A stretch of DNA of 64,000 nucleotides from Nitrospirota bacterium (GTDB taxonomy: Bacteria; Nitrospirota; UBA9217): positions 32,001 to 96,000 of the forward strand of contig CAVUCU010000007.1 in assembly GCA_963740085.1 (NCBI GenBank). Direction: 5' to 3'. Positions 31,920 through 41,176 of the stretch are shown one piece after another. Each line of letters opens with the position of its first letter. Position 1 is the stretch's first letter. Both the position numbers and the translations under genes were made by a program. Under the pieces are notes generated by a model. That model saw only the letters and a program-made list of their open reading frames with translations, was not told the origin of the DNA and searched no databases.

Positions 31920-32235
31920 ATGAAACCGCTAAACTTCATAGGTTCAAGCTTGGACGACCTTCGGAACTTCCCGGATGAAGCTCGCAAAGCGGCAGGTTTT
32001 GAATTATATTCCGTACAATCCGGACTTGAGCCGAACGATTGGAAACCTATGCCCAGTAATAGGACGCGGGGTCAAGGAAATCCGTATTCACGTCCTGGGA
32101 GAATGGCGCATTATTTATGTGACAAAGTTCGAGGACGCGGTATATGTCCTCCATTCGTTTCAAAAGAAGAGCAAAAGAACGAATCAAAACGATATTGAAT
32201 CAGCTCGCAAGCGATTCAAGCAAATTGGAGGGTAG
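31920..32235 (+). CDS. RelE/HigB (Gp49-like) toxin with a +1 frameshift at ~32058
   Basis: MKPLNFIGSSLDDLRNFP...DWKPMPS, then IGRGVKEIRIH...VYVLHSFQKKS in the next frame. Confidence 0.88.
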
Positions 32236-32587: not shown

Positions 32588-32675
32588 GCAAAATAAATAC
32601 TAAAATAATGAAGAAAATAGCCCTGGTGCTGATATGTCTTATCGTTCTAACAGCAGAGACGGGAGGAGTCTATCT

Positions 32676-33335
32676 ATGTCTAAATGCAGAAGCGGATTAA
32701 GGCTTTTTTTGCTGATCATAGTCGTGCTCACAGTCGGTGTGCCGATATTGACGCATCCGGCACATGCTGCGGATACGACCGAAGCTGCTATGCAGGATTA
32801 TGAGGCGACTATCCGTAAGGCCGAAAACTACTTTTCGGTCGGCAACTATTTCGAAGCGGTCCTCAGTTATGAGCGTGCCCGACGGGTTGCCTACAATAAC
32901 AAGCTTCGGACAGACACTGCTGCGCTCGAAAAGAAGTTGGCCCAGGCCCGTGATGCGCGCGACGGCAAGCTGCCGGTCGGCGGATCTCAATCTTCACCTG
33001 GATCAATACCGCAGAGAGCAGGAACTGGCCCGGCTGGCGTTTCTGTTTTTGCCGAGCTGACAACTTCGCGCGGCAGCGTTCCCTGGGTCCTGACAGCCCG
33101 CGACGTGCCGAAGGGTAACAAACTAAACTTTGGACCGTATGATCCCGCATCGCGCTGGGACATCTCTAATCCGTTTCTTCGGCATGATGCACGCTTCTTC
33201 AGTAATATCTGGAACGTGGCCTGCACTGCGGACGGGACCATCTATCTCGGCGCGGAAAGCGTCGTTCCGGCTGAAGAATTCCGGCGCATGCCGCGGGCAA
33301 ACCGCGACTGGTATAGTGGCGTAAGAGAACATTAA
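32676..33335 (+). CDS. Secreted hypothetical protein with a TPR-like helix, probably 3'-truncated
   Basis: GGAGGA RBS and signal peptide (..PAHA/A); ends abruptly where the sequence turns AT-rich. Confidence 0.55.
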   Translation: MSKCRSGLRLFLLIIVVLTVGVPILTHPAHAADTTEAAMQDYEATIRKAENYFSVGNYFEAVLSYERARRVAYNNKLRTDTAALEKKLAQARDARDGKLPVGGSQSSPGSIPQRAGTGPAGVSVFAELTTSRGSVPWVLTARDVPKGNKLNFGPYDPASRWDISNPFLRHDARFFSNIWNVACTADGTIYLGAESVVPAEEFRRMPRANRDWYSGVREH

Positions 33336-33405: not shown

Positions 33406-33627
33406 ATGCGCGTTAAAGACCTTCCCGAAATATCAAAATTAAGCACACCTGAAAAGATACTGCTGGTCGAGGATCTTTGGGACAATATCTCTGCAGATGA
33501 CGCTTCCATACCTGTGCCAGAAAGCCACAAAGCCGAACTCGATAAACGTTACAGACGATTTCAATCTGCGCCCGGCACCCTCCTGTCTCTTGATGATCTC
33601 AGAGCGAGAGTAGAAAAAAGGAAATGA
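33406..33627 (+). CDS. Putative addiction-module antitoxin (TIGR02574-like)
   Basis: LSTPEKILLVEDLWDNI...HKAELDKR. Confidence 0.88.
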   Translation: MRVKDLPEISKLSTPEKILLVEDLWDNISADDASIPVPESHKAELDKRYRRFQSAPGTLLSLDDLRARVEKRK

Positions 33628-33935
33628 CGTACACCCTTCGCTTTCTGCCAGAAGTCGAAGATGATGTTATCAGCGGCTATTCATGGTATGAATCGAAATC
33701 GCCGGGACTTGGAGAAGATTTCCTTCGGATGTTTTATGCCTGTGTCGGGGATATTCCCAGAAACCCCCTCATGTACCACAAAGTTCATCACGAATTCAGA
33801 CGTTGCCTGCTCCGGCGCTTCCCTTATGCAATCTATTTCATAATCAACGACAATCAAATTATCGTAACTGGCCTCTTCCATGGTGCCCGTGATCCCAGTA
33901 CTATCGAGTCGATGCTGAGGAACCGAAAAGCGTGA
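33624..33935 (+). CDS. RelE/ParE-family toxin
   Basis: WYE...GLGEDF, RRFPYAIYF and H.ARDP; ATGA overlap with the antitoxin. Confidence 0.9.
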   Translation: MTYTLRFLPEVEDDVISGYSWYESKSPGLGEDFLRMFYACVGDIPRNPLMYHKVHHEFRRCLLRRFPYAIYFIINDNQIIVTGLFHGARDPSTIESMLRNRKA

Positions 33936-34232: not shown

Positions 34233-35012
34233 ATGGAACACGATTTCTGGCTCATCCTCTTTGGTTTTCTCGTCGGCGTCTTCGGCACCATGATCGGCGC
34301 CGGCGGGGGCTTCATCCTGACACCGGTCCTTTTGCTGTTATATCCTCACGACAGCACGGACACCATCACGAGCATATCGCTCGCGGTGACCTTCGCCAAC
34401 GCTTTTTCCGGCACCATCGCCTATGCGCGCATGAAGCGCATCAACTACAAGTACGGGCTGATCTTTTCGGCCGCCGCTGTTCCCGGTGCAGTGCTGGGCG
34501 CAATGGCGACCTACTATGTCCCGCGGAGCGTCTTCGACCCCATCTTCGGCGTAGTGCTTCTGGCGATCGCGGCGGTCATAATCGTCAAGCCGCCCCGGGA
34601 GCATGACGGGGACGGGAACGGTCAGGTGCATCTGTCGCGCCGGCGCCTTCTCCTCGGCATCGCGATCAGCGTCGGCGTGGGCCTTGTCTCGAGCTTCCTG
34701 GGAATCGGCGGCGGAATTGTGCATGTCCCTGCACTTTCGACCATCCTCGGCTTCTCCGTGCACATGGCCACGGCAACGTCGCACTTCATTCTTGCCATCG
34801 TGACCGCAGTCGGCGTCCTGGTGCACATCGCGACCGGGACCTTCAATCACGGCGTGGTGCGTACCGCGTTCCTTGTTACGGGAGTCCTGCTCGGAGCGCA
34901 GCTGGGCGCTCTTATCTCATCGAAGGTGGAAGGAAAGTCCATTATCCGCGTGCTGGCGGTGGCCCTTGCGCTCGTCGGGGTCCGACTGCTGTATCTGTCT
35001 GTTTCCGCATAG
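34233..35012 (+). CDS. TauE/SafE (TSUP) sulfite-exporter-family protein
   Basis: GAGGGFILTP, GIGGGIVHVP and ATATS. Confidence 0.92.
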   Translation: MEHDFWLILFGFLVGVFGTMIGAGGGFILTPVLLLLYPHDSTDTITSISLAVTFANAFSGTIAYARMKRINYKYGLIFSAAAVPGAVLGAMATYYVPRSVFDPIFGVVLLAIAAVIIVKPPREHDGDGNGQVHLSRRRLLLGIAISVGVGLVSSFLGIGGGIVHVPALSTILGFSVHMATATSHFILAIVTAVGVLVHIATGTFNHGVVRTAFLVTGVLLGAQLGALISSKVEGKSIIRVLAVALALVGVRLLYLSVSA

Positions 35013-35074
35013 CATAACTGGAGTTAATTCATATCAAATAATTTGTCGAAGAAGCTTTTCAACAGGACGCCGGC

Positions 35075-35692
35075 ATGCTTCATATGGACAAAACCATCTT
35101 CTCGGATACCTGTGATCTTCCCGAATGGCACCACGGGCGTCAGGACTACTCCGTCTGGCTCATTGAACTCAGCAGTATGGAGGTTTCTCAAAAAGTCCGC
35201 GATGCGAGAGAACATCTTTCCGAATTCCTCATCCAGCCCTATCAGCGACAGCCGCATATTACGATCTTTGTCTGCGGCTTTTTAGCCGATACCGCGCGTT
35301 ACGCTGACGATTACAGCGTTGAGCAGTTCGAACGCCATGCGCAGTTGTTGAGGGCGGCGGATTTTAAGCCCTTTACCGTGGAGATCGGGGGACTGAACAG
35401 CTTTGCTTCTGCGCCATATCTGGAAGTCGCTGATCCGGAGGGCGGGATAGAACGTTTGAGGACCCTCTTCCTGGCCAATGGATCGGAGATCGCCCGAAGC
35501 ATGACATATGCTCCCCATGTAACCATTGGACTTTACGCGGCAGCATTTCCGGGCAGCGTGGTGTACGAGAGAATAGCTTCTTTCCCCAGGACGTATTGCA
35601 AACATGCCGTGGATCGGGTGACGTTTGCGACCTATCGGCCACAGGAAACGGCCGGGGAACTAACGTGGCGGCATGTAGTTGCCTTTCTTTGA
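35075..35692 (+). CDS. 2H phosphoesterase (2'-5' RNA ligase family)
   Basis: Two HxT motifs: PHITI and PHVTI. Confidence 0.8.
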   Translation: MLHMDKTIFSDTCDLPEWHHGRQDYSVWLIELSSMEVSQKVRDAREHLSEFLIQPYQRQPHITIFVCGFLADTARYADDYSVEQFERHAQLLRAADFKPFTVEIGGLNSFASAPYLEVADPEGGIERLRTLFLANGSEIARSMTYAPHVTIGLYAAAFPGSVVYERIASFPRTYCKHAVDRVTFATYRPQETAGELTWRHVVAFL

Positions 35693-36019
35693 AATCAAGC
35701 GGGCTACATCTGCATTTGCTGGAATGCCGTGAATTGCCTTGCGCGAGCTTTGAGCCGCAGAGGAAGTATCTCCCCTTGATACCGCTAAACGCGAAGATGG
35801 TCAGACGGCTCTGCGCTGGATACTGATGTTCGATGCCGTGACCTGCGCCTTCCCGGGAGCAAAGCGCCTGACACAGACAGAAGACAATATCGCTTCCCCG
35901 TCAATCGAAGGCGGTCCTTCCGCACAACATCCGCACAGCATGCTCTTGACAAACGGCCTTCATTGTCTTACTCTATACCTGCTTCAGACGAGAATGAACC
36001 TCAGGTATAACCCAATAAT

Positions 36020-37354
36020 ATGAACCCTATCTGTATAGTAGACGACGAATCTTCCATTTGTTCCACGGTAGCCAGCATCCTGAAGGACGAGGGATATCAG
36101 ACCATCGCATTTCCGGATGCGGAGAGCTTCTGGCAGGAACTCGATACCATGGAGCCCGCTCTCGTCCTGCTGGATATCTGGCTTCCCGGCATAGACGGAA
36201 TGCAACTCCTGAAACGTCTTCATGGCCGATTGCCCGCGCTCCCGGTCATCATGATGAGCGGACATGCCGGTATCGAGGCGGCGGTTGCCGCCATAAAGGC
36301 CGGTGCCTATGATTTTTTGGAAAAACCGCTGCACCTCGAGGTTTTACTCGACAAGGTGGAGTCTGCGCTTAAGCACAGCCCTTCCGTGAGCGGCGCAACC
36401 CTGCCGTCGGATACGAGGCTCGAGATCGTCAGCACCGACCTTTTGATGCCTCCCGGCATGGTGGACGTGGTGGATTCCCGCGAACCTCAGCGCACTCTCA
36501 GAAGGAATGTGGTCCTTAACGGCATAGGGCTCCTGAGCGGCCGGAACACCGGTATCATCCTGACCCCCCTCGGGATCAACGAAGGGATCATCTTTCAAAC
36601 TCTTGACGGTCAAACCATCCGTGGACATGTCACTTCCCTTGAGGATTTCTCCCGAAAAGTCCTGTCAAAGACCTTCGCCGCCAACTCCACCACACTGGAC
36701 AACGGGAGGCGGCGGGTGCGCACGGTTGAACATCTGATGGCGGTTCTTTCGATGTACGGAATAACCAACGTGCTCATAAAGGTCGACGAGGAGATCCCGA
36801 ACATAGACGGCTCCGCCATGGGTTTTTGCGGCCTCATAGAAGAGGCCGGGATAGAGGAACAGCCCGCCTTCACCAGGGTTGCGGTCATCCGTCAGAAGAT
36901 AGGGGTGGGAAACGAGGAGAAGCATGAAAAACACGTCTATGCAGAGCCCTTTGAGGGGTTCGAGATATCGATGCGGGTCGACTACCTTCCACCCATAGGC
37001 GAACAGGTCCTCACGTTCAATCCCGAAAAGGCGTCTTTTGCAAAGGAGATCGCCCCTGCCCGCTCCTTCAACACGTTTGAGAATATAGAAATGGCCCAGA
37101 AACTTGGAAAGGTCGGCGGCGGATATCTCAATTCGCACATCATCATGTACGATGGCAAGGTCATCAACACGGAGCTTCGTTATCCCGACGAATTCGTTCG
37201 CCACAAGATATTGGATCTGATCGGAGACCTCTACCTCCTCGGCTTCTCCATCAGAGGACGCTTTACCGCCAATATGACCTCGCACGGTTACAATCAGGCC
37301 ATGGTGGAACGCCTGTACCAGGCTATCCAGAGCAGCTCCGGGAAAAGACCGTAA
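36020..37354 (+). CDS. lpxC: Response-regulator receiver domain fused to LpxC deacetylase
   Basis: REC: IVDDE, LLDIWLPG, MSGH, LEKP. LpxC: QRTL...GIGLLSG, TVEHLMAVL, EIP.IDGSA, EIAPARSF, HKILDLIGDL, SHG.N. Confidence 0.9.
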   Translation: MNPICIVDDESSICSTVASILKDEGYQTIAFPDAESFWQELDTMEPALVLLDIWLPGIDGMQLLKRLHGRLPALPVIMMSGHAGIEAAVAAIKAGAYDFLEKPLHLEVLLDKVESALKHSPSVSGATLPSDTRLEIVSTDLLMPPGMVDVVDSREPQRTLRRNVVLNGIGLLSGRNTGIILTPLGINEGIIFQTLDGQTIRGHVTSLEDFSRKVLSKTFAANSTTLDNGRRRVRTVEHLMAVLSMYGITNVLIKVDEEIPNIDGSAMGFCGLIEEAGIEEQPAFTRVAVIRQKIGVGNEEKHEKHVYAEPFEGFEISMRVDYLPPIGEQVLTFNPEKASFAKEIAPARSFNTFENIEMAQKLGKVGGGYLNSHIIMYDGKVINTELRYPDEFVRHKILDLIGDLYLLGFSIRGRFTANMTSHGYNQAMVERLYQAIQSSSGKRP

Positions 37355-37397: not shown

Positions 37398-38165
37398 TCA
37401 GAATTGGAAATATTTCGTCTGGCCCTTCCCCACCGGCCTCGCAGTTTTCAACATCTTATCCACAAACTGTTTCGCCTTTTCCACAGCCTTTTCCACAGGC
37501 AGTCCCCGGGCTATGAACACGGTTATTGCCGAGGAAAGTACGCACCCGGTGCCGTGAAACTCACCCTTTCGGCGCGTTGTGGAGAAGCTGAGCACGGTTT
37601 TACCGCCGTATAAGGTATCGGTAGCGGGACCATACCCATGCCCTCCCTTGATCAGCACGTACGCCGGCCCCATGTCGAGGATCTTTCCGGCGGCGTAATC
37701 CATGTCCGCGTCTTTTCTGATCAGCATCTTTGCGAGGGTTTCTGCCTCGGGAATATTGGGTGTCACGATCAATGCCCGGGGGAGGAGTGCTTTCTTGAAT
37801 GAAGCGAGCGCGGCGGGCTGAAGCAGTGCCTTGCCTGAACTCGATCTGAGCACGGGATCGACCACGAGGTTCTTGATATTGTACTTTCCGAGGACCGCAG
37901 CCACGGCTTCCACATTCTGTCTGGTCAGGATCATTCCGGTCTTGACCGCATCAGGCCTGATATCCGACAACAGCGCATCGATCTGCTGCAACAATACCTT
38001 TGGTTTGATTGCGTGCGTCGCTGATACGCCCCTGCTGTTTTGGATGGTAAGCGCTGTTGGAATGGCCATGCCGAAAACGCCGAGGATTTGAAAGGTCTTC
38101 AGGTCTGTCTGAATACCCGCGCCCGAGGAGGGGTCGGAACCCGCTATGGAGAGGACTTTGATCAT
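37398..38165 (-). CDS. thiD: HMP/HMP-P kinase
   Basis: AGSDPSSGAGIQTD, TPNIPEA, KGGH and HGTGC. Confidence 0.95.
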   Translation of the reverse strand: MIKVLSIAGSDPSSGAGIQTDLKTFQILGVFGMAIPTALTIQNSRGVSATHAIKPKVLLQQIDALLSDIRPDAVKTGMILTRQNVEAVAAVLGKYNIKNLVVDPVLRSSSGKALLQPAALASFKKALLPRALIVTPNIPEAETLAKMLIRKDADMDYAAGKILDMGPAYVLIKGGHGYGPATDTLYGGKTVLSFSTTRRKGEFHGTGCVLSSAITVFIARGLPVEKAVEKAKQFVDKMLKTARPVGKGQTKYFQF

Positions 38166-38172
38166 AATTTTC

Positions 38173-38260
38173 GAGAAGTCAGGAGCCAGAATCCAGAAGT
38201 CAGAAAAAACCAGATGTCCGTTTTCCTGACTCCTGACTCCTTACTCCTGTCTCCCCTGCT
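38173..38260. repeat. Inverted 7-mer tandem-repeat element
   Basis: AGAAGTC AGGAGCC AGAATCC AGAAGTC AGAA ... TCCTGAC TCCTGAC TCCTTAC TCCTGTC. Confidence 0.75.
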
Positions 38261-38263
38261 TCT

Positions 38264-39115
38264 TTATTCCAATTTGAGCTTGATCAACTCAAGCGGGTCC
38301 ACCTTCGCGCCTTGCAGGCGCACGCCCCAGTGCAGGTGGGCGCCGGTAGCGCGGCCGGTGGAACCGACGAGTGCTATAACATCACCCTTCATGACTGCCT
38401 GCCCGTACCGGACGTTGATCTTCGAGAGATGAAAGAACATGGTGTAGATCCCCTGTCCGTGATCGAGAACAACACTGTTCCCCGAAAAGAACTGGTCATC
38501 AACCAGCACCACCACCCCGTCATTGGGCGCCAGCACCGGGTCTCCCTCGTCCGCCGTAATGTCAACTCCCGAGTGAGAATTCTTCGGAATTTTATTGATG
38601 ATCCTTCTGACGCCGAACGGGGTGCCGATCTTTTTCCCCGGCAGGGGGTCGATGAAGTTCCCCTTCCAGAAGCGCGCCGAGTCGACTGGCCATATGGCAG
38701 ATGTCTTTTTCTGGTCCCGCTCCGCTCTCGCCTCGTTCTCGGGCGAGAGGACCACCATGTCCTTGGGCAAGGTGAGCCGCTGGATCGGATACCTCTTCTT
38801 CCTGATTTTGATTTTTTTCAAAATCTTCTTGCCGTTGCTCATGACCTCAAGCGGATAGACCCCCGGCTCTCTGTTCAGGTCGATGCCGAGAACGGCCTTA
38901 TAGGAGGTCTTCGCAATATTAAAGTAAACCTTCTTGCCATTGAACGTGCCTTCCACCGGTCCGGCAACATTCGTGACTACGACGGTGACGATATCACCGG
39001 GACCGATCTGTTTCGGCTGTATAATGATCGTTGGCGGCGCACCGGTCGCAGCGCGAGCAAGGACGGGAGAAATAACCAGCGCAAAAATGAGTAAGATGTT
39101 CTTCAATGTCTTCAT
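38264..39115 (-). CDS. M23-family metallopeptidase
   Basis: Signal peptide, HSGVD and GAHLHW. Confidence 0.93.
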   Translation of the reverse strand: MKTLKNILLIFALVISPVLARAATGAPPTIIIQPKQIGPGDIVTVVVTNVAGPVEGTFNGKKVYFNIAKTSYKAVLGIDLNREPGVYPLEVMSNGKKILKKIKIRKKRYPIQRLTLPKDMVVLSPENEARAERDQKKTSAIWPVDSARFWKGNFIDPLPGKKIGTPFGVRRIINKIPKNSHSGVDITADEGDPVLAPNDGVVVLVDDQFFSGNSVVLDHGQGIYTMFFHLSKINVRYGQAVMKGDVIALVGSTGRATGAHLHWGVRLQGAKVDPLELIKLKLE

Positions 39116-39135
39116 ACCTCGGCCCTTCTTACTTC

Positions 39136-40458
39136 TTACTTCTTACTTATGGCCTCTGTCTTCTTTTCCCTGTCTTCTTTCTTCAAATATTTGCTCACGC
39201 CCTTCATGGAGCAGAACTCGCCGCACATGCTGCAGACGTCTGATTCCTGCGGCAGGCTTGACTCGCGCAGCTTGCGCGCCCGTTCAGGATTGATCGAAAG
39301 CTCGATCTGGCCTTTCCAGTCGAGCGCTTTGCGCCGGCGTGCCATCTCGTTGTCCCAGTCCATCGCGCCCCTGACACCCTTTGCGATATCCGCGGCATGA
39401 GCGGCAATGCGCGACGCGATCACGCCCTCGCGCACGTCCTCAAGGTCAGGCAGACGCAGGTGTTCGGAAGGAGTAACATAGCAGAGAAAATCCGCGCCGG
39501 CGGCTCCGGAGATCGCTCCGCCGATGGCCGAGGTGATGTGGTCGTATCCCGGCGCCACATCCGTAACGAGCGGACCGAGCACGTAGAATGGAGCTCCCTT
39601 GCACAGTTCTTTTTGAATTTTGATATTGGTTTCAACCTGGTTGATCGGGACATGGCCCGGTCCCTCGATCATCACTTGCACACCGGCTTCGTGCGCCTGG
39701 TCGCGCAGTTCTCCAAGGGTGATCAGCTCCTCGATCTGCGCCCTGTCCGTAGCATCGGCGAGACAGCCGGGCCGCATACCGTCGCCGAGCGAAAGGGTCA
39801 CGTCGAACTTCTTGCAGATCTCGATCAGCCGGTCGTACTGCGTGTAGAGCGGGTTTTCCCTTCCATTCACGACGATCCATTCGAGGTGGAACGCGCCGCC
39901 GCGGCTCACCACGTCCATGATCCTGCCCTGGCGCTTGAGCCGCTCCACGCTCGCGATGGTCACGCCGCAGTGCACGGTCACGAAGTCCACTCCCTCTTCG
40001 GCCTGCTGCTCGATCACGCGGAACAGCACCTCGGGGTCCATCTGTACGATCGATTTGCCCTGAGCCACGGTCTCGACAGCGGCCTGGTAGATCGGCACGG
40101 TGCCGATGGAAACCGTTGACTGCTTCAGGATCTCCTTTCGGATCTCGATGATCGGGCCGCCGGTCGAGAGATCCATGACCGCGTCGGCCCCGGCGGAAAC
40201 CGCGACCTTGAGCTTCGCGATCTCGTCATCGATCGACATCCGGTCCCTGGATGTACCGATGTTCGCATTGACCTTGGTTCGCAGACCCTTCCCGATCCCG
40301 AGCGGGGTGATCGACGTATGCCGGTTATTCCGGGTAATGACTATCGTCCCGTTGACAATTCCGTTCAATATATGTTCAACACTCACGCCCTCGGCCCTGG
40401 CCACCGCTTCCATCTCGGGAGTGATGTTGCCTTTTCGCGCTTCGAGTATCTGCGTCAT
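39136..40458 (-). CDS. thiC: Phosphomethylpyrimidine synthase
   Basis: KVNANIG, MDLSTGG, VSRGG, EGPGH and CSMCGEFC. Confidence 0.96.
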   Translation of the reverse strand: MTQILEARKGNITPEMEAVARAEGVSVEHILNGIVNGTIVITRNNRHTSITPLGIGKGLRTKVNANIGTSRDRMSIDDEIAKLKVAVSAGADAVMDLSTGGPIIEIRKEILKQSTVSIGTVPIYQAAVETVAQGKSIVQMDPEVLFRVIEQQAEEGVDFVTVHCGVTIASVERLKRQGRIMDVVSRGGAFHLEWIVVNGRENPLYTQYDRLIEICKKFDVTLSLGDGMRPGCLADATDRAQIEELITLGELRDQAHEAGVQVMIEGPGHVPINQVETNIKIQKELCKGAPFYVLGPLVTDVAPGYDHITSAIGGAISGAAGADFLCYVTPSEHLRLPDLEDVREGVIASRIAAHAADIAKGVRGAMDWDNEMARRRKALDWKGQIELSINPERARKLRESSLPQESDVCSMCGEFCSMKGVSKYLKKEDREKKTEAISKK

Positions 40459-40498
40459 AGTACACCTCGCTCCGTTTTTTAACCTGGTCCGATCCCGT

Positions 40499-41176
40499 TC
40501 ACCTGCGGCCGCACTGAACACAGATAGACCTGTCGACAATACGCACCATGTTGACGGTGTTCTGCGCCGCCTTCCGTATATCCTCCGCGCCAAAGATCGC
40601 TGAGATCATGGAAACACCATAGGCGCCGGCCCACAAGACATTGCCGATGTTCCTTCCTCGTATCCCGCCCAGAGCGAATATCGGGATCGAAACAGCTCTC
40701 TTTACGCCTCTTAGTGCCTCCAGCCCCACGGGAGCGCCGAGCTTCACTTTTGACGGCGTTTCATAGATGGGCCCGAACGTAATGAAATCAGCGCCTTCAC
40801 TCTCGGCAACAACCGCCTCGTCAACCGTGTGCGTTGATGCTCCGATCAGCATCTTCGTGCCGACGATATTCCTGACCGCTGACGGCGGCATACTCTGATG
40901 ACCGAGGTGGACGCCGTCGGCCACTGCTGCCACGGCAATGTCCACATGGTCATTAATGAAGAGCAACGCGCCAAATTCGTTCGTCAGCGCCCTCATCTCC
41001 TGCGCAAGGGCGAGCAACTCTCTGACCGGAAGGTCCCGCTCCCGCAGCTGTATCGCATGAACGCCGCCTTGAAGCGCCAGTCTCACCGCATCAGGAAGAG
41101 GCATCTTTGTCTGCTGACGGTCTGTAATAAGATAGAGGTTGAAATCAACGGCCAATGGACCCTCCGCAATAGGCAT
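40499..41176 (-). CDS. thiE: Thiamine phosphate synthase
   Basis: LYLITD, QLRE, IND, DGVHLG, STH and ALGGI. Confidence 0.95.
   Translation of the reverse strand: MPIAEGPLAVDFNLYLITDRQQTKMPLPDAVRLALQGGVHAIQLRERDLPVRELLALAQEMRALTNEFGALLFINDHVDIAVAAVADGVHLGHQSMPPSAVRNIVGTKMLIGASTHTVDEAVVAESEGADFITFGPIYETPSKVKLGAPVGLEALRGVKRAVSIPIFALGGIRGRNIGNVLWAGAYGVSMISAIFGAEDIRKAAQNTVNMVRIVDRSICVQCGRR

Follow-up and report, generated by a model that had tools for sequence, protein, structure and literature searches.

A response-regulator receiver joined to LpxC in a Nitrospirota bacterium: a conserved fusion with possible two-component control of lipid A synthesis

The deacetylase LpxC, a drug target, commits the cell to lipid A synthesis, at the step of that pathway under the tightest control; in E. 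coli LpxC is controlled through FtsH/LapB proteolysis, and the controls known to us (proteolysis in enterobacteria, protein partners in a few other species) all work via separate proteins. Among response regulators with enzymatic output, such as CheB, PleD/WspR and RpfG, phosphorylation of the receiver sets the output of the enzyme. Here we describe a gene of a Nitrospirota bacterium (assembly GCA_963740085.1) in which a receiver and an LpxC domain are encoded as one polypeptide; it lies in the window, by which we mean the whole 64,000-nucleotide stretch analysed, positions 32,001 to 96,000 of the forward strand of contig CAVUCU010000007.1.

A described link between this step and a two-component system comes from Desulfovibrio vulgaris, where the NtrC-type regulator DVU2934 (system DVU2931-DVU2934) has lpxC as its single target, and in Syntrophobacter fumaroxidans lpxC stands directly upstream of the orthologous operon, according to excerpts of PMC3333781; the regulator-lpxC link is echoed in passages of PMC4114195 and of bioRxiv 10.1101/2021.11.05.467447. 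By analogy, DVU2934 and lpxC provide an independent functional link for two-component control of LpxC. The initial annotation of the window, which proposed direct control of the enzyme by its receiver, did not know such a regulatory mode to be characterised, and likewise our literature search, in which subscription journals were not covered, found no description of a receiver-LpxC fusion. The fusion is real, conserved and, by that search, unstudied, and it brings a new output domain to the response regulators with enzymatic output.

The fusion gene and its conserved residues

The annotation had read one continuous open reading frame (ORF) holding a complete NtrC/NtrX-like receiver and an LpxC domain, a reading borne out in full. 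The gene and its parts are located in the window as follows (aa, amino acids; AF2, AlphaFold2; pLDDT, predicted local distance difference test).

36020..37354, plus strand: receiver-LpxC fusion gene, 444 aa, stop codon included (ORF list, Pfam, NCBIfam)
36020..36379, plus strand: receiver (REC), NtrX-like, residues 1-120, with D8, D9, D52, S80 and K102 (PF00072, NCBIfam, solved chains)
36380..36487, plus strand: linker, residues 121-156 (AF2 pLDDT, conservation)
36488..37327, plus strand: LpxC domain, residues 157-436 (PF03331, TIGR00325, phmmer, AF2/Foldseek)

The ORF starts with ATG, has no internal stop and carries both domains in one frame; its G+C content is similar to that of the adjoining DNA, the start codon and the N-terminus MNPICI(V/I)DD are common to 11 of 11 relatives examined, and a database entry 100% identical to it (P0001) has both Pfam domains. 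Pfam finds exactly two domains in the protein, each well above its cut-off: Response_reg (PF00072) at residues 4-113 with 99.7 bits (cut-off 30.2), and LpxC (PF03331) at residues 157-433 with 243.9 bits (cut-off 27), covering profile positions 1-267 of 268. The same scan gave no Pfam family and no helix-turn-helix (HTH) or AAA+ remnant in linker residues 121-156. For the receiver the best NCBIfam model is NtrX (NF051870), followed by FixJ and NtrC, each of which matches the receiver part alone (NtrX 111 bits against a cut-off of 600, NtrC 93 against 559), and the best solved chains for the N-terminus are 5m7n ('Nitrogen assimilation regulatory protein') and 4d6x, in keeping with the kinship first proposed. 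For the enzyme part, the lpxC equivalog TIGR00325 of NCBIfam scores 216.2 bits, above its cut-off of 187.25, and the best solved chains are P. aeruginosa and E. coli LpxC (phmmer, 2e-42 to 7e-38). An AlphaFold2 model built on a 63-row alignment (pLDDT 89.3, predicted template-modelling score 0.75) is confident in both domains, with pLDDT below 50 at linker residues 122-132, and the top Foldseek matches of this model are all LpxC structures (E 5e-31; template-modelling score, normalised to the target, 0.80-0.93, and 0.89 for P. aeruginosa LpxC 7cid).

All the motifs first noticed by eye are present, namely D8-D9 (IVDDE), D52 (LLDIW), S80 (MSGH) and K102 (EKP) in the receiver and, located against P. 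aeruginosa and E. coli LpxC, E237-H238 (VEHL), H395-K396-D399 (HKILD) and H422 (SHGYN) in the enzyme. Residues E237, H422, D403 and K396 correspond to E. coli Glu78, His265, Asp246 and Lys239, which we take to be catalytic. The zinc ligands would be H238, H395 and D399, which correspond to His79, His238 and Asp242, named as ligands of the E. coli enzyme in excerpts of PMC10254716.

Conservation was followed among close homologues (the best 120 of 7262 hits among 8000 scored candidates, all with both Pfam domains and 83-100% identical to the fusion over 98-100% of its length) and in a fused-clade set of 49 sequences, made up of the window's protein and 48 cluster representatives. In E. coli numbering, no substitution is seen at E78, H79, H238, K239, D242, D246 and H265, either across the fused-clade set (49 of 49) or across the close homologues (120 of 120). 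Of the receiver residues, D9 is kept in 37, D52 in 36, S80 in 37 (with threonine in the other two) and K102 in 38 of 39 fused sequences, and this conservation holds down to about 30% identity. The mean majority fraction among the close homologues is 0.91 in the receiver, 0.92 in the LpxC part, 0.82 in the linker and 0.67 in the last 8 residues, and invariant columns number 61 of 120 in the receiver and 3 of 36 in the linker. Judged from these alignments, the catalytic and phospho-acceptor residues are under selection. Residue 323 of the window's protein (36986-36988), which adjoins the position aligned with E. coli F161, is leucine, as in 6 of the 120 close homologues, 111 of which have proline.

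Distribution and origin of the fusion

The survey of the REC and LpxC architecture that the annotation had called for found it in several phyla and far beyond this assembly. The fusion occurs in 41 of the 64 family genomes, with 37 full-length LpxC matches and 4 partial or broken ones (G016, G020, G022, G071), and a comparison of 40 relatives' genomes with the window's own found it in a single frame, at 79-93% identity, in most genomes of the family. None of the 16 genomes sampled from ten further families of the phylum has it; these carry stand-alone LpxC alone (30-39% identity). A scan of species-representative genomes kept 80 loci, which were classified by tblastn and ORF checks: 59 are fused in one ORF (44 short and 15 long forms), one is probably fused and is broken or at a contig edge, six carry lpxC, a kinase and an NtrX-like regulator unfused in a row, four have the regulator with lpxC on the opposite strand, and ten have LpxC only. 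Record titles of fused loci name Thermodesulfobacteriota, Nitrospinota, Acidobacteriota, Binatia, Thermodesulfovibrionia and others, and labels on close homologues and loci include 'Desulfobulbaceae bacterium', 'Desulfocapsaceae', 'Desulfoprunum' and 'Desulfopila sp. IMCC35006', the last being, by its record title, a cultured strain with the fusion, in which the homologue is 86% identical; two submitters' labels read Nitrospirota and Myxococcota. Going by these names, the window's family falls within the Desulfobulbales. Three fused genes (L048, L083, L111) are on bins labelled Promethearchaeota archaeon, Patescibacteria group and Myxococcota, labels that may reflect mis-binning; the LpxC part of L111 is 84% identical to that of the window.

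In the window's own genome (G000; 3.46 Mb, 7 contigs, 98.54% complete) a profile search returned one PF03331 match, the fusion, and LpxB, LpxD and LpxK are present together on contig C4. In three genomes of the same genus (G004, G005, G008) the stand-alone lpxC adjoins the orthologue of a 266-aa gene, and in G008 it is flanked on the opposite side by a 196-aa gene also found in G000. These two flanks lie 210 bp apart in G000 (C1:1269521-1270321 and C1:1270532-1271122), and no trace of lpxC was detected by tblastn in the 210-bp gap; around the orthologue of the 266-aa gene, the uninterrupted sequence of three genomes of two other genera (G018, G052, G072) also held no LpxC ORF. Since the syntenic site is intact inside a 1.62-Mb contig, the absence of stand-alone lpxC from G000 is real and not an assembly gap, and the check for a second copy that had been recommended comes out negative both by the PF03331 search and at the syntenic site. 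With the fusion as the sole LpxC of this genome, all flux into lipid A would pass through a protein of response-regulator type.

Across the 64 family genomes, PF03331 matches fall into two score classes, stand-alone at 341-365 bits and fusion at 237-257 bits. Nineteen genomes have the fusion only, 22 both genes and 19 the stand-alone gene only, while one has a single unclassifiable fragment (G078, 63% complete) and three have no match (65, 87 and 92% complete). The fusion-only genomes are spread over 8 genera, and eight of them (G000, G003, G006, G018, G021, G051, G052, G072) are at least 95% complete. Such a split is what would result if LpxC could come from either gene. In a tree, the family's stand-alone lpxC genes group in a single clade, in broad agreement with kinship, so their absence would most simply be explained by repeated loss. 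Broken copies had also been weighed as a sign of redundancy (G020 has its fusion in two pieces, C14:235004-236330, and G064 its stand-alone gene in three, C43:28102-28908) and were dropped, as both assemblies also split the gene of an NtrY-like kinase and the copies may as likely be sequencing errors as pseudogenes. The kinase gene is split in the assemblies G004, G001 and G067 too, and the fusion of G047 (L037:7578-8904) has a single frameshift in the linker.

The origin of the fusion was approached by a search of 1.84 billion cluster representatives, with Pfam run on ten of the matches listed and a local domain map on all 150 of them. Many fused forms are among the matches listed, at 27-72% identity, in a graded series of architectures: REC-AAA+(Sigma54_activat)-HTH_8-LpxC (about 730 aa), REC-AAA+-LpxC, REC-HTH_8-LpxC (about 490-505 aa) and REC-LpxC (412-483 aa). 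By Pfam, the relatives P0124 and P0125 carry Sigma54_activat and HTH_8, and in the domain map the linkers from REC to LpxC vary between about 20 and 65 residues. In an unrooted tree of 117 LpxC domains (IQ-TREE quick search, with support from the SH-like approximate likelihood ratio test, SH-aLRT, alone), all sampled fused LpxC domains are on one side of a branch with 97% SH-aLRT, grouped with four short 'alone' sequences (283-292 aa; possible fragments); the other side holds 68 stand-alone sequences, including 11 from the window's family and 2 from other families of the phylum. The subclade of the window (99% support) is sister to all other fused LpxC, and inside the fused clade the architectures are intermixed, P0125 (with P0127) pairing REC-HTH-LpxC with REC-AAA-HTH-LpxC, and P0136 with P0124 and P0153 pairing REC-LpxC with long forms, so that the supported branches require at least four changes of the 'REC-only' state. 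We infer that the middle domains (AAA+ and HTH) were lost repeatedly, since their repeated insertion in the same order is unlikely, and by this tree the window's protein descends from the long form or is sister to it. The NtrX-like character of the receiver is explained by the regulator-fused LpxC domains being one clade, which includes full NtrX-like regulator-LpxC proteins. The AAA+ module of NtrX-like regulators works independently of sigma-54, and the result of a crude regular-expression search, in which a GAFTGA-like motif was found in 0 of the 15 long forms, fits such a module.

The six loci with unfused lpxC, kinase and NtrX-like regulator (L068, L069, L078, L087, L094, L117) carry the record labels NC10, Acidobacteria/Acidobacteriota, Holophagales and 'Deltaproteobacteria'; a strict test for an NtrY-like kinase was passed in four of them, and the remaining two show an intervening kinase hit. 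This unfused cluster is likely the state before fusion, and its fit with the D. vulgaris picture of a regulator tied to lpxC suggests the merger of a regulator with its target gene. The series from unfused cluster through full regulator-LpxC to REC-LpxC would then illustrate how a transcription factor and its target gene may merge into a post-translational switch. Another idea, that a genome has either the fusion or an unfused NtrX-like regulator, arose because receiver hits in some fusion-less genomes were more similar, and was rejected: an orthologue of that regulator (71-84% identity) is found in nearly every family genome, G000 included (C1:595957-597327).

Proposed control of LpxC and its alternatives

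The fusion protein is very probably a working LpxC, that is, a predicted UDP-3-O-acyl-N-acetylglucosamine deacetylase with an NtrX-type phospho-receiver at its N-terminus. That a histidine kinase encoded elsewhere phosphorylates D52 and thereby modulates LpxC output is a weaker proposition, which we hold to be reasonably probable. An NtrY-like kinase gene stands directly upstream at 13 of the 48 fused loci with more than 2.5 kb of upstream DNA (3 of 13 long and 10 of 35 short forms), and G000 has exactly one NtrY_N-bearing kinase (C1:395445-397916, minus strand), with the domains NtrY_N, HAMP, PAS, HisKA and HATPase_c. When five query kinases, four adjacent to fusions and one from an unfused lpxC-kinase-regulator cluster, were compared with G000, this kinase was the best match of all five (385-469 bits, the next hit at most 157), which makes it the best candidate partner of REC-LpxC, perhaps feeding both the fusion and a sigma-54 regulator. 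In two sister families (G026, G027) the NtrY-like kinase adjoins that regulator, whose orthologue in G000 (C1:595957-597327, 456 aa) has its GSFTGA intact and is about 200 kb from the kinase; the kinase is an orphan in all 10 family neighbourhoods examined. In G059, G063 and G068 kinase and sigma-54 regulator lie about 28-33 kb apart on one contig, the pair being dispersed.

Once phosphorylated, the receiver would alter LpxC output, and we infer the direction and mode of this control, as we do the enzyme activity, the phosphorylation and the identity of the kinase, from the sequences. The favoured mode would be a change in oligomeric state through receiver dimerisation, as in NtrC/NtrX-type regulators, with steric auto-inhibition of the CheB type as second choice and phosphorylation-dependent turnover as third. 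Oligomerisation is preferred to a single docking surface because the same receiver precedes an AAA+ ring-former, the linkers are variable and the short form appears to have arisen several times.

Several observations weigh against this proposal. The annotation had seen no kinase gene adjacent to the fusion, and its absence extends to the whole window: tblastn at E <= 1e-3 found there neither a kinase-like sequence, with the NtrY-like kinase of the genome as query, nor a second receiver-like sequence, with the fusion's receiver. No gene neighbour of the fusion is conserved across 12 relatives beyond the closest. The NtrY-like kinase is present in 60 of the 64 family genomes, including ones without the fusion, hence its co-occurrence with the fusion says nothing and was set aside as evidence, and the sigma-54 regulator may be the kinase's real, or only, partner. 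In the seven genomes with both genes that were compared (21 pairs), the mean identity is 86% for the fused LpxC part and 68% for the stand-alone protein; the difference may stem from stronger constraint, from transfer within the family or from both, so that the high identity of the fusion could in part reflect transfer, which we considered because neighbours differ between genera and some between-genus identities exceed within-genus ones. The Pfam LpxC score is about 245 bits for the fusions, as against about 355 for the stand-alone class, and the window's subclade has fixed replacements at five positions that are strongly conserved in LpxC and lie in or close to the sugar-nucleotide pocket of the E. 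coli enzyme, as listed here for the 120 close homologues and the 68 stand-alone sequences.

E. coli H19: L172 in the fusion; L in 120 of 120 close homologues; H in 63 of 68 stand-alone sequences
E. coli T191: S349 in the fusion; S in 119 of 120 close homologues; T in 67 of 68 stand-alone sequences
E. coli F194: T352 in the fusion; T in 120 of 120 close homologues; F in 51 of 68 stand-alone sequences
E. coli D197: N355 in the fusion; N in 120 of 120 close homologues; D or E in 66 of 68 stand-alone sequences
E. coli K262: M419 in the fusion; M in 117 of 120 close homologues; K or R in 55 of 68 stand-alone sequences

The change from Thr191 to Ser349 is conservative. The canonical pocket residues His19, Phe194, Asp197 and Lys262, outside the formal LpxC family definition, are missing from the fusion; we take His19 and Asp197 to be pocket-related. 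Together with the lower Pfam score, the pocket changes indicate that substrate or kinetics may differ, and it is mainly the room they leave for altered substrate handling that lowers our confidence in a true LpxC.

Among the alternatives, one would have the receiver set the lifetime of the enzyme and not its rate, phosphorylation exposing or hiding a degron or recruiting a protease and thus replacing or supplementing the FtsH/LapB route. The E. coli enzyme is controlled by proteolysis (excerpts of PMC3333781), and G000 encodes a LapB-like protein of 435 aa on contig C1 (L137:1477-2781, minus strand) with an N-terminal hydrophobic segment, a tetratricopeptide-repeat region and a C-terminal zinc ribbon. 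This protein aligns end to end with the LapB models, but at 92 bits against a cut-off of 363, and of the two G000 hits of PF18073, a model that also matches in Gram-positive controls, one is RadA-like by its N-terminus and the other is the LapB-like protein. Nothing in the fusion sequence speaks for a degron and its C-terminal tail is the least conserved part, so we consider control by turnover unlikely.

A second alternative gains from the pocket changes: the fusion might be a specialised second deacetylase acting on a different substrate, for instance some other UDP-acyl-sugar or a lipid A precursor built on GlcNAc3N, under condition-specific regulation and distinct from the housekeeping LpxC. 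All five replacements (H19L, T191S, F194T, D197N, K262M) are fixed in the subclade, and two of them concern residues that excerpts of PMC10254716 place in the hexose pocket (F194) and the UDP site (K262) of the E. coli enzyme; moreover, 22 of the 64 genomes have canonical lpxC beside the fusion, whose Pfam score is lower by about 110 bits. On the other hand, it is the sole LpxC in 19 of the 64, eight of these at least 95% complete, and G000 keeps LpxB, LpxD and LpxK while lacking the stand-alone gene at an uninterrupted syntenic site. Other members of the fused clade mostly retain H19 (39 of 49), T191 (44 of 49) and F194 (37 of 49), so that the changes are a feature of the subclade and not of the fusion as such. 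Taken together, a second, non-housekeeping deacetylase appears to us quite unlikely.

A receiver that has ceased to be a switch and persists from the ancestral regulator solely to help a constitutive LpxC dimerise or fold would agree with the orphan state of the gene (no kinase in the window, no neighbour conserved in 12 relatives) and with the decay of the AAA+ module in the long forms suggested by the missing GAFTGA-like motif. Such a relic would hardly be expected to keep D9, D52, S/T80 and K102 in 36-39 of 39 sequences down to about 30% identity, to be as conserved as the enzyme it precedes (0.91 and 0.92, with half of its columns, 61 of 120, invariant among the 120 homologues) or to retain a kinase directly upstream at 13 of 48 fused loci, and we judge this explanation very unlikely. 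Finally, an assembly chimera or gene-calling artefact can be dismissed, given the same single ORF in 41 of 64 family genomes and 59 of 80 public loci, a cultured isolate among them, and both domains in all of the best 120 of 7262 database matches.

Returning to phosphorylation-dependent control of a working LpxC, a bolder form of it can be imagined, possible although doubtful as a whole: in bacteria of the sulfate-reducer type, the housekeeping lpxC would have been replaced by a response regulator with LpxC output, and lipid A synthesis would be set minute by minute by a membrane NtrY-like kinase that also drives the sigma-54 regulator, in a branched pathway that would tie envelope construction to the signal sensed, the remodelled pocket being either a changed substrate site or a new allosteric one that arose with the fusion. 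If control by the receiver is true at all, a receiver on the enzyme itself would place outer-membrane synthesis under direct two-component control, a different solution from those hitherto described. The fusion is of clear interest to envelope biology. The family offers an unusually clean natural experiment, in that close relatives differ in having one gene, the other or both, and this natural set, along with at least one cultured strain, makes the idea testable by ordinary biochemistry and complementation.

Putative transcription unit, neighbouring genes and likeness to known systems

Upstream of the fusion gene, three elements were noted in the window.

35946..35974, plus strand: promoter-like element TTGACA-17 nt-TACTCT, about 45 nt upstream of the start codon
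35920..35941, plus strand: tandem 11-bp direct repeat CCGCACAACAT CCGCACAGCAT, abutting the -35 hexamer
35667..35683, plus strand: terminator-like hairpin at the end of the upstream gene (35075-35692), from a pattern scan

The TTGACA/TACTCT element is conserved in 8 of 12 aligned upstream regions despite different flanking genes; a sigma-70 consensus scanner made no call on it, because its second hexamer matches the consensus at 3 of 6 positions, and no sigma-54 promoter was seen by eye upstream of the fusion. Genome-wide, the repeat pattern was counted 4 times, where about 8.6 would be expected; two of the four make up the upstream pair, which is unique there as a pair. Two copies are present in the relative L028 too, and a single copy in others. 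The tandem repeat is a possible operator of some regulator. The terminator scan found 1 site against 1.7 expected in shuffles, weak evidence alone. Since the upstream hairpin and a converging downstream gene combine with the conserved promoter-like element and the repeat, the fusion gene may be a self-contained transcription unit, served by a promoter of its own and perhaps by an operator as well.

Of the neighbouring genes, a TauE/SafE-type membrane protein (259 aa) and a 2H-phosphoesterase or 2'-5' RNA ligase-like protein (205 aa) are encoded upstream on the plus strand at 34233-35692, the latter adjoining the fusion only in the closest relative, G003. Downstream, converging on the minus strand at 37398-41176, are genes for a ThiD-like kinase, an M23 peptidase and ThiC and an overlapping 225-aa ORF; the same run of genes is near the fusion gene of G001. 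Farther upstream, a toxin-antitoxin-like pair with a 4-base overlap (33406-33935; 73 aa, Unstab_antitox, and 103 aa, ParE_toxin) follows a 233-aa ORF (32634-33335) that begins with a hydrophobic segment and matches no Pfam family at E <= 0.001.

Compared with canonical stand-alone LpxC of E. coli, P. aeruginosa and Aquifex aeolicus, the fusion has the same zinc ligands and catalytic Glu/His/Asp/Lys and a matching predicted fold, whereas it is only 33-38% identical, adds an N-terminal receiver and a 36-residue linker, belongs to a clade apart from the 68 stand-alone sequences and has five pocket positions changed. The known control of the E. coli enzyme is FtsH/LapB proteolysis and not phosphorylation; one structure among the Foldseek matches of the fusion model, 8v24, is entitled 'LapB cytoplasmic domain in complex with LpxC'. 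The bifunctional LpxC-FabZ protein (NF009667) is another natural LpxC fusion, but its partner is a C-terminal enzyme of the pathway and not a signalling domain; this model scores 171.5 bits on the fusion (cut-off 465), which matches only positions 4-226 of its 464, and the fusion has no FabZ part. With NtrY/NtrX and the NtrC family the likeness lies in the receiver (NtrX model; 5m7n, 4d6x) and in the order of REC, AAA+ and HTH_8 kept in the fusion's relatives, yet the window's protein has neither AAA+ nor HTH and therefore cannot act on transcription, its output being an enzyme, and no kinase gene adjoins it. The D. vulgaris system DVU2931-DVU2934, from the same broad bacterial group, resembles the fusion in that its two components serve lpxC alone; there, control is transcriptional and lpxC is a separate gene, while the fusion unites regulator and enzyme in a single chain that has lost the DNA-binding part. 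CheB (REC-methylesterase), PleD/WspR (REC-GGDEF) and RpfG (REC-HD-GYP) share with it the logic of a receiver followed by a catalytic domain, the fusion differing from them in that its output is an unrelated domain and a biosynthetic enzyme of the cell envelope in place of a signalling enzyme.

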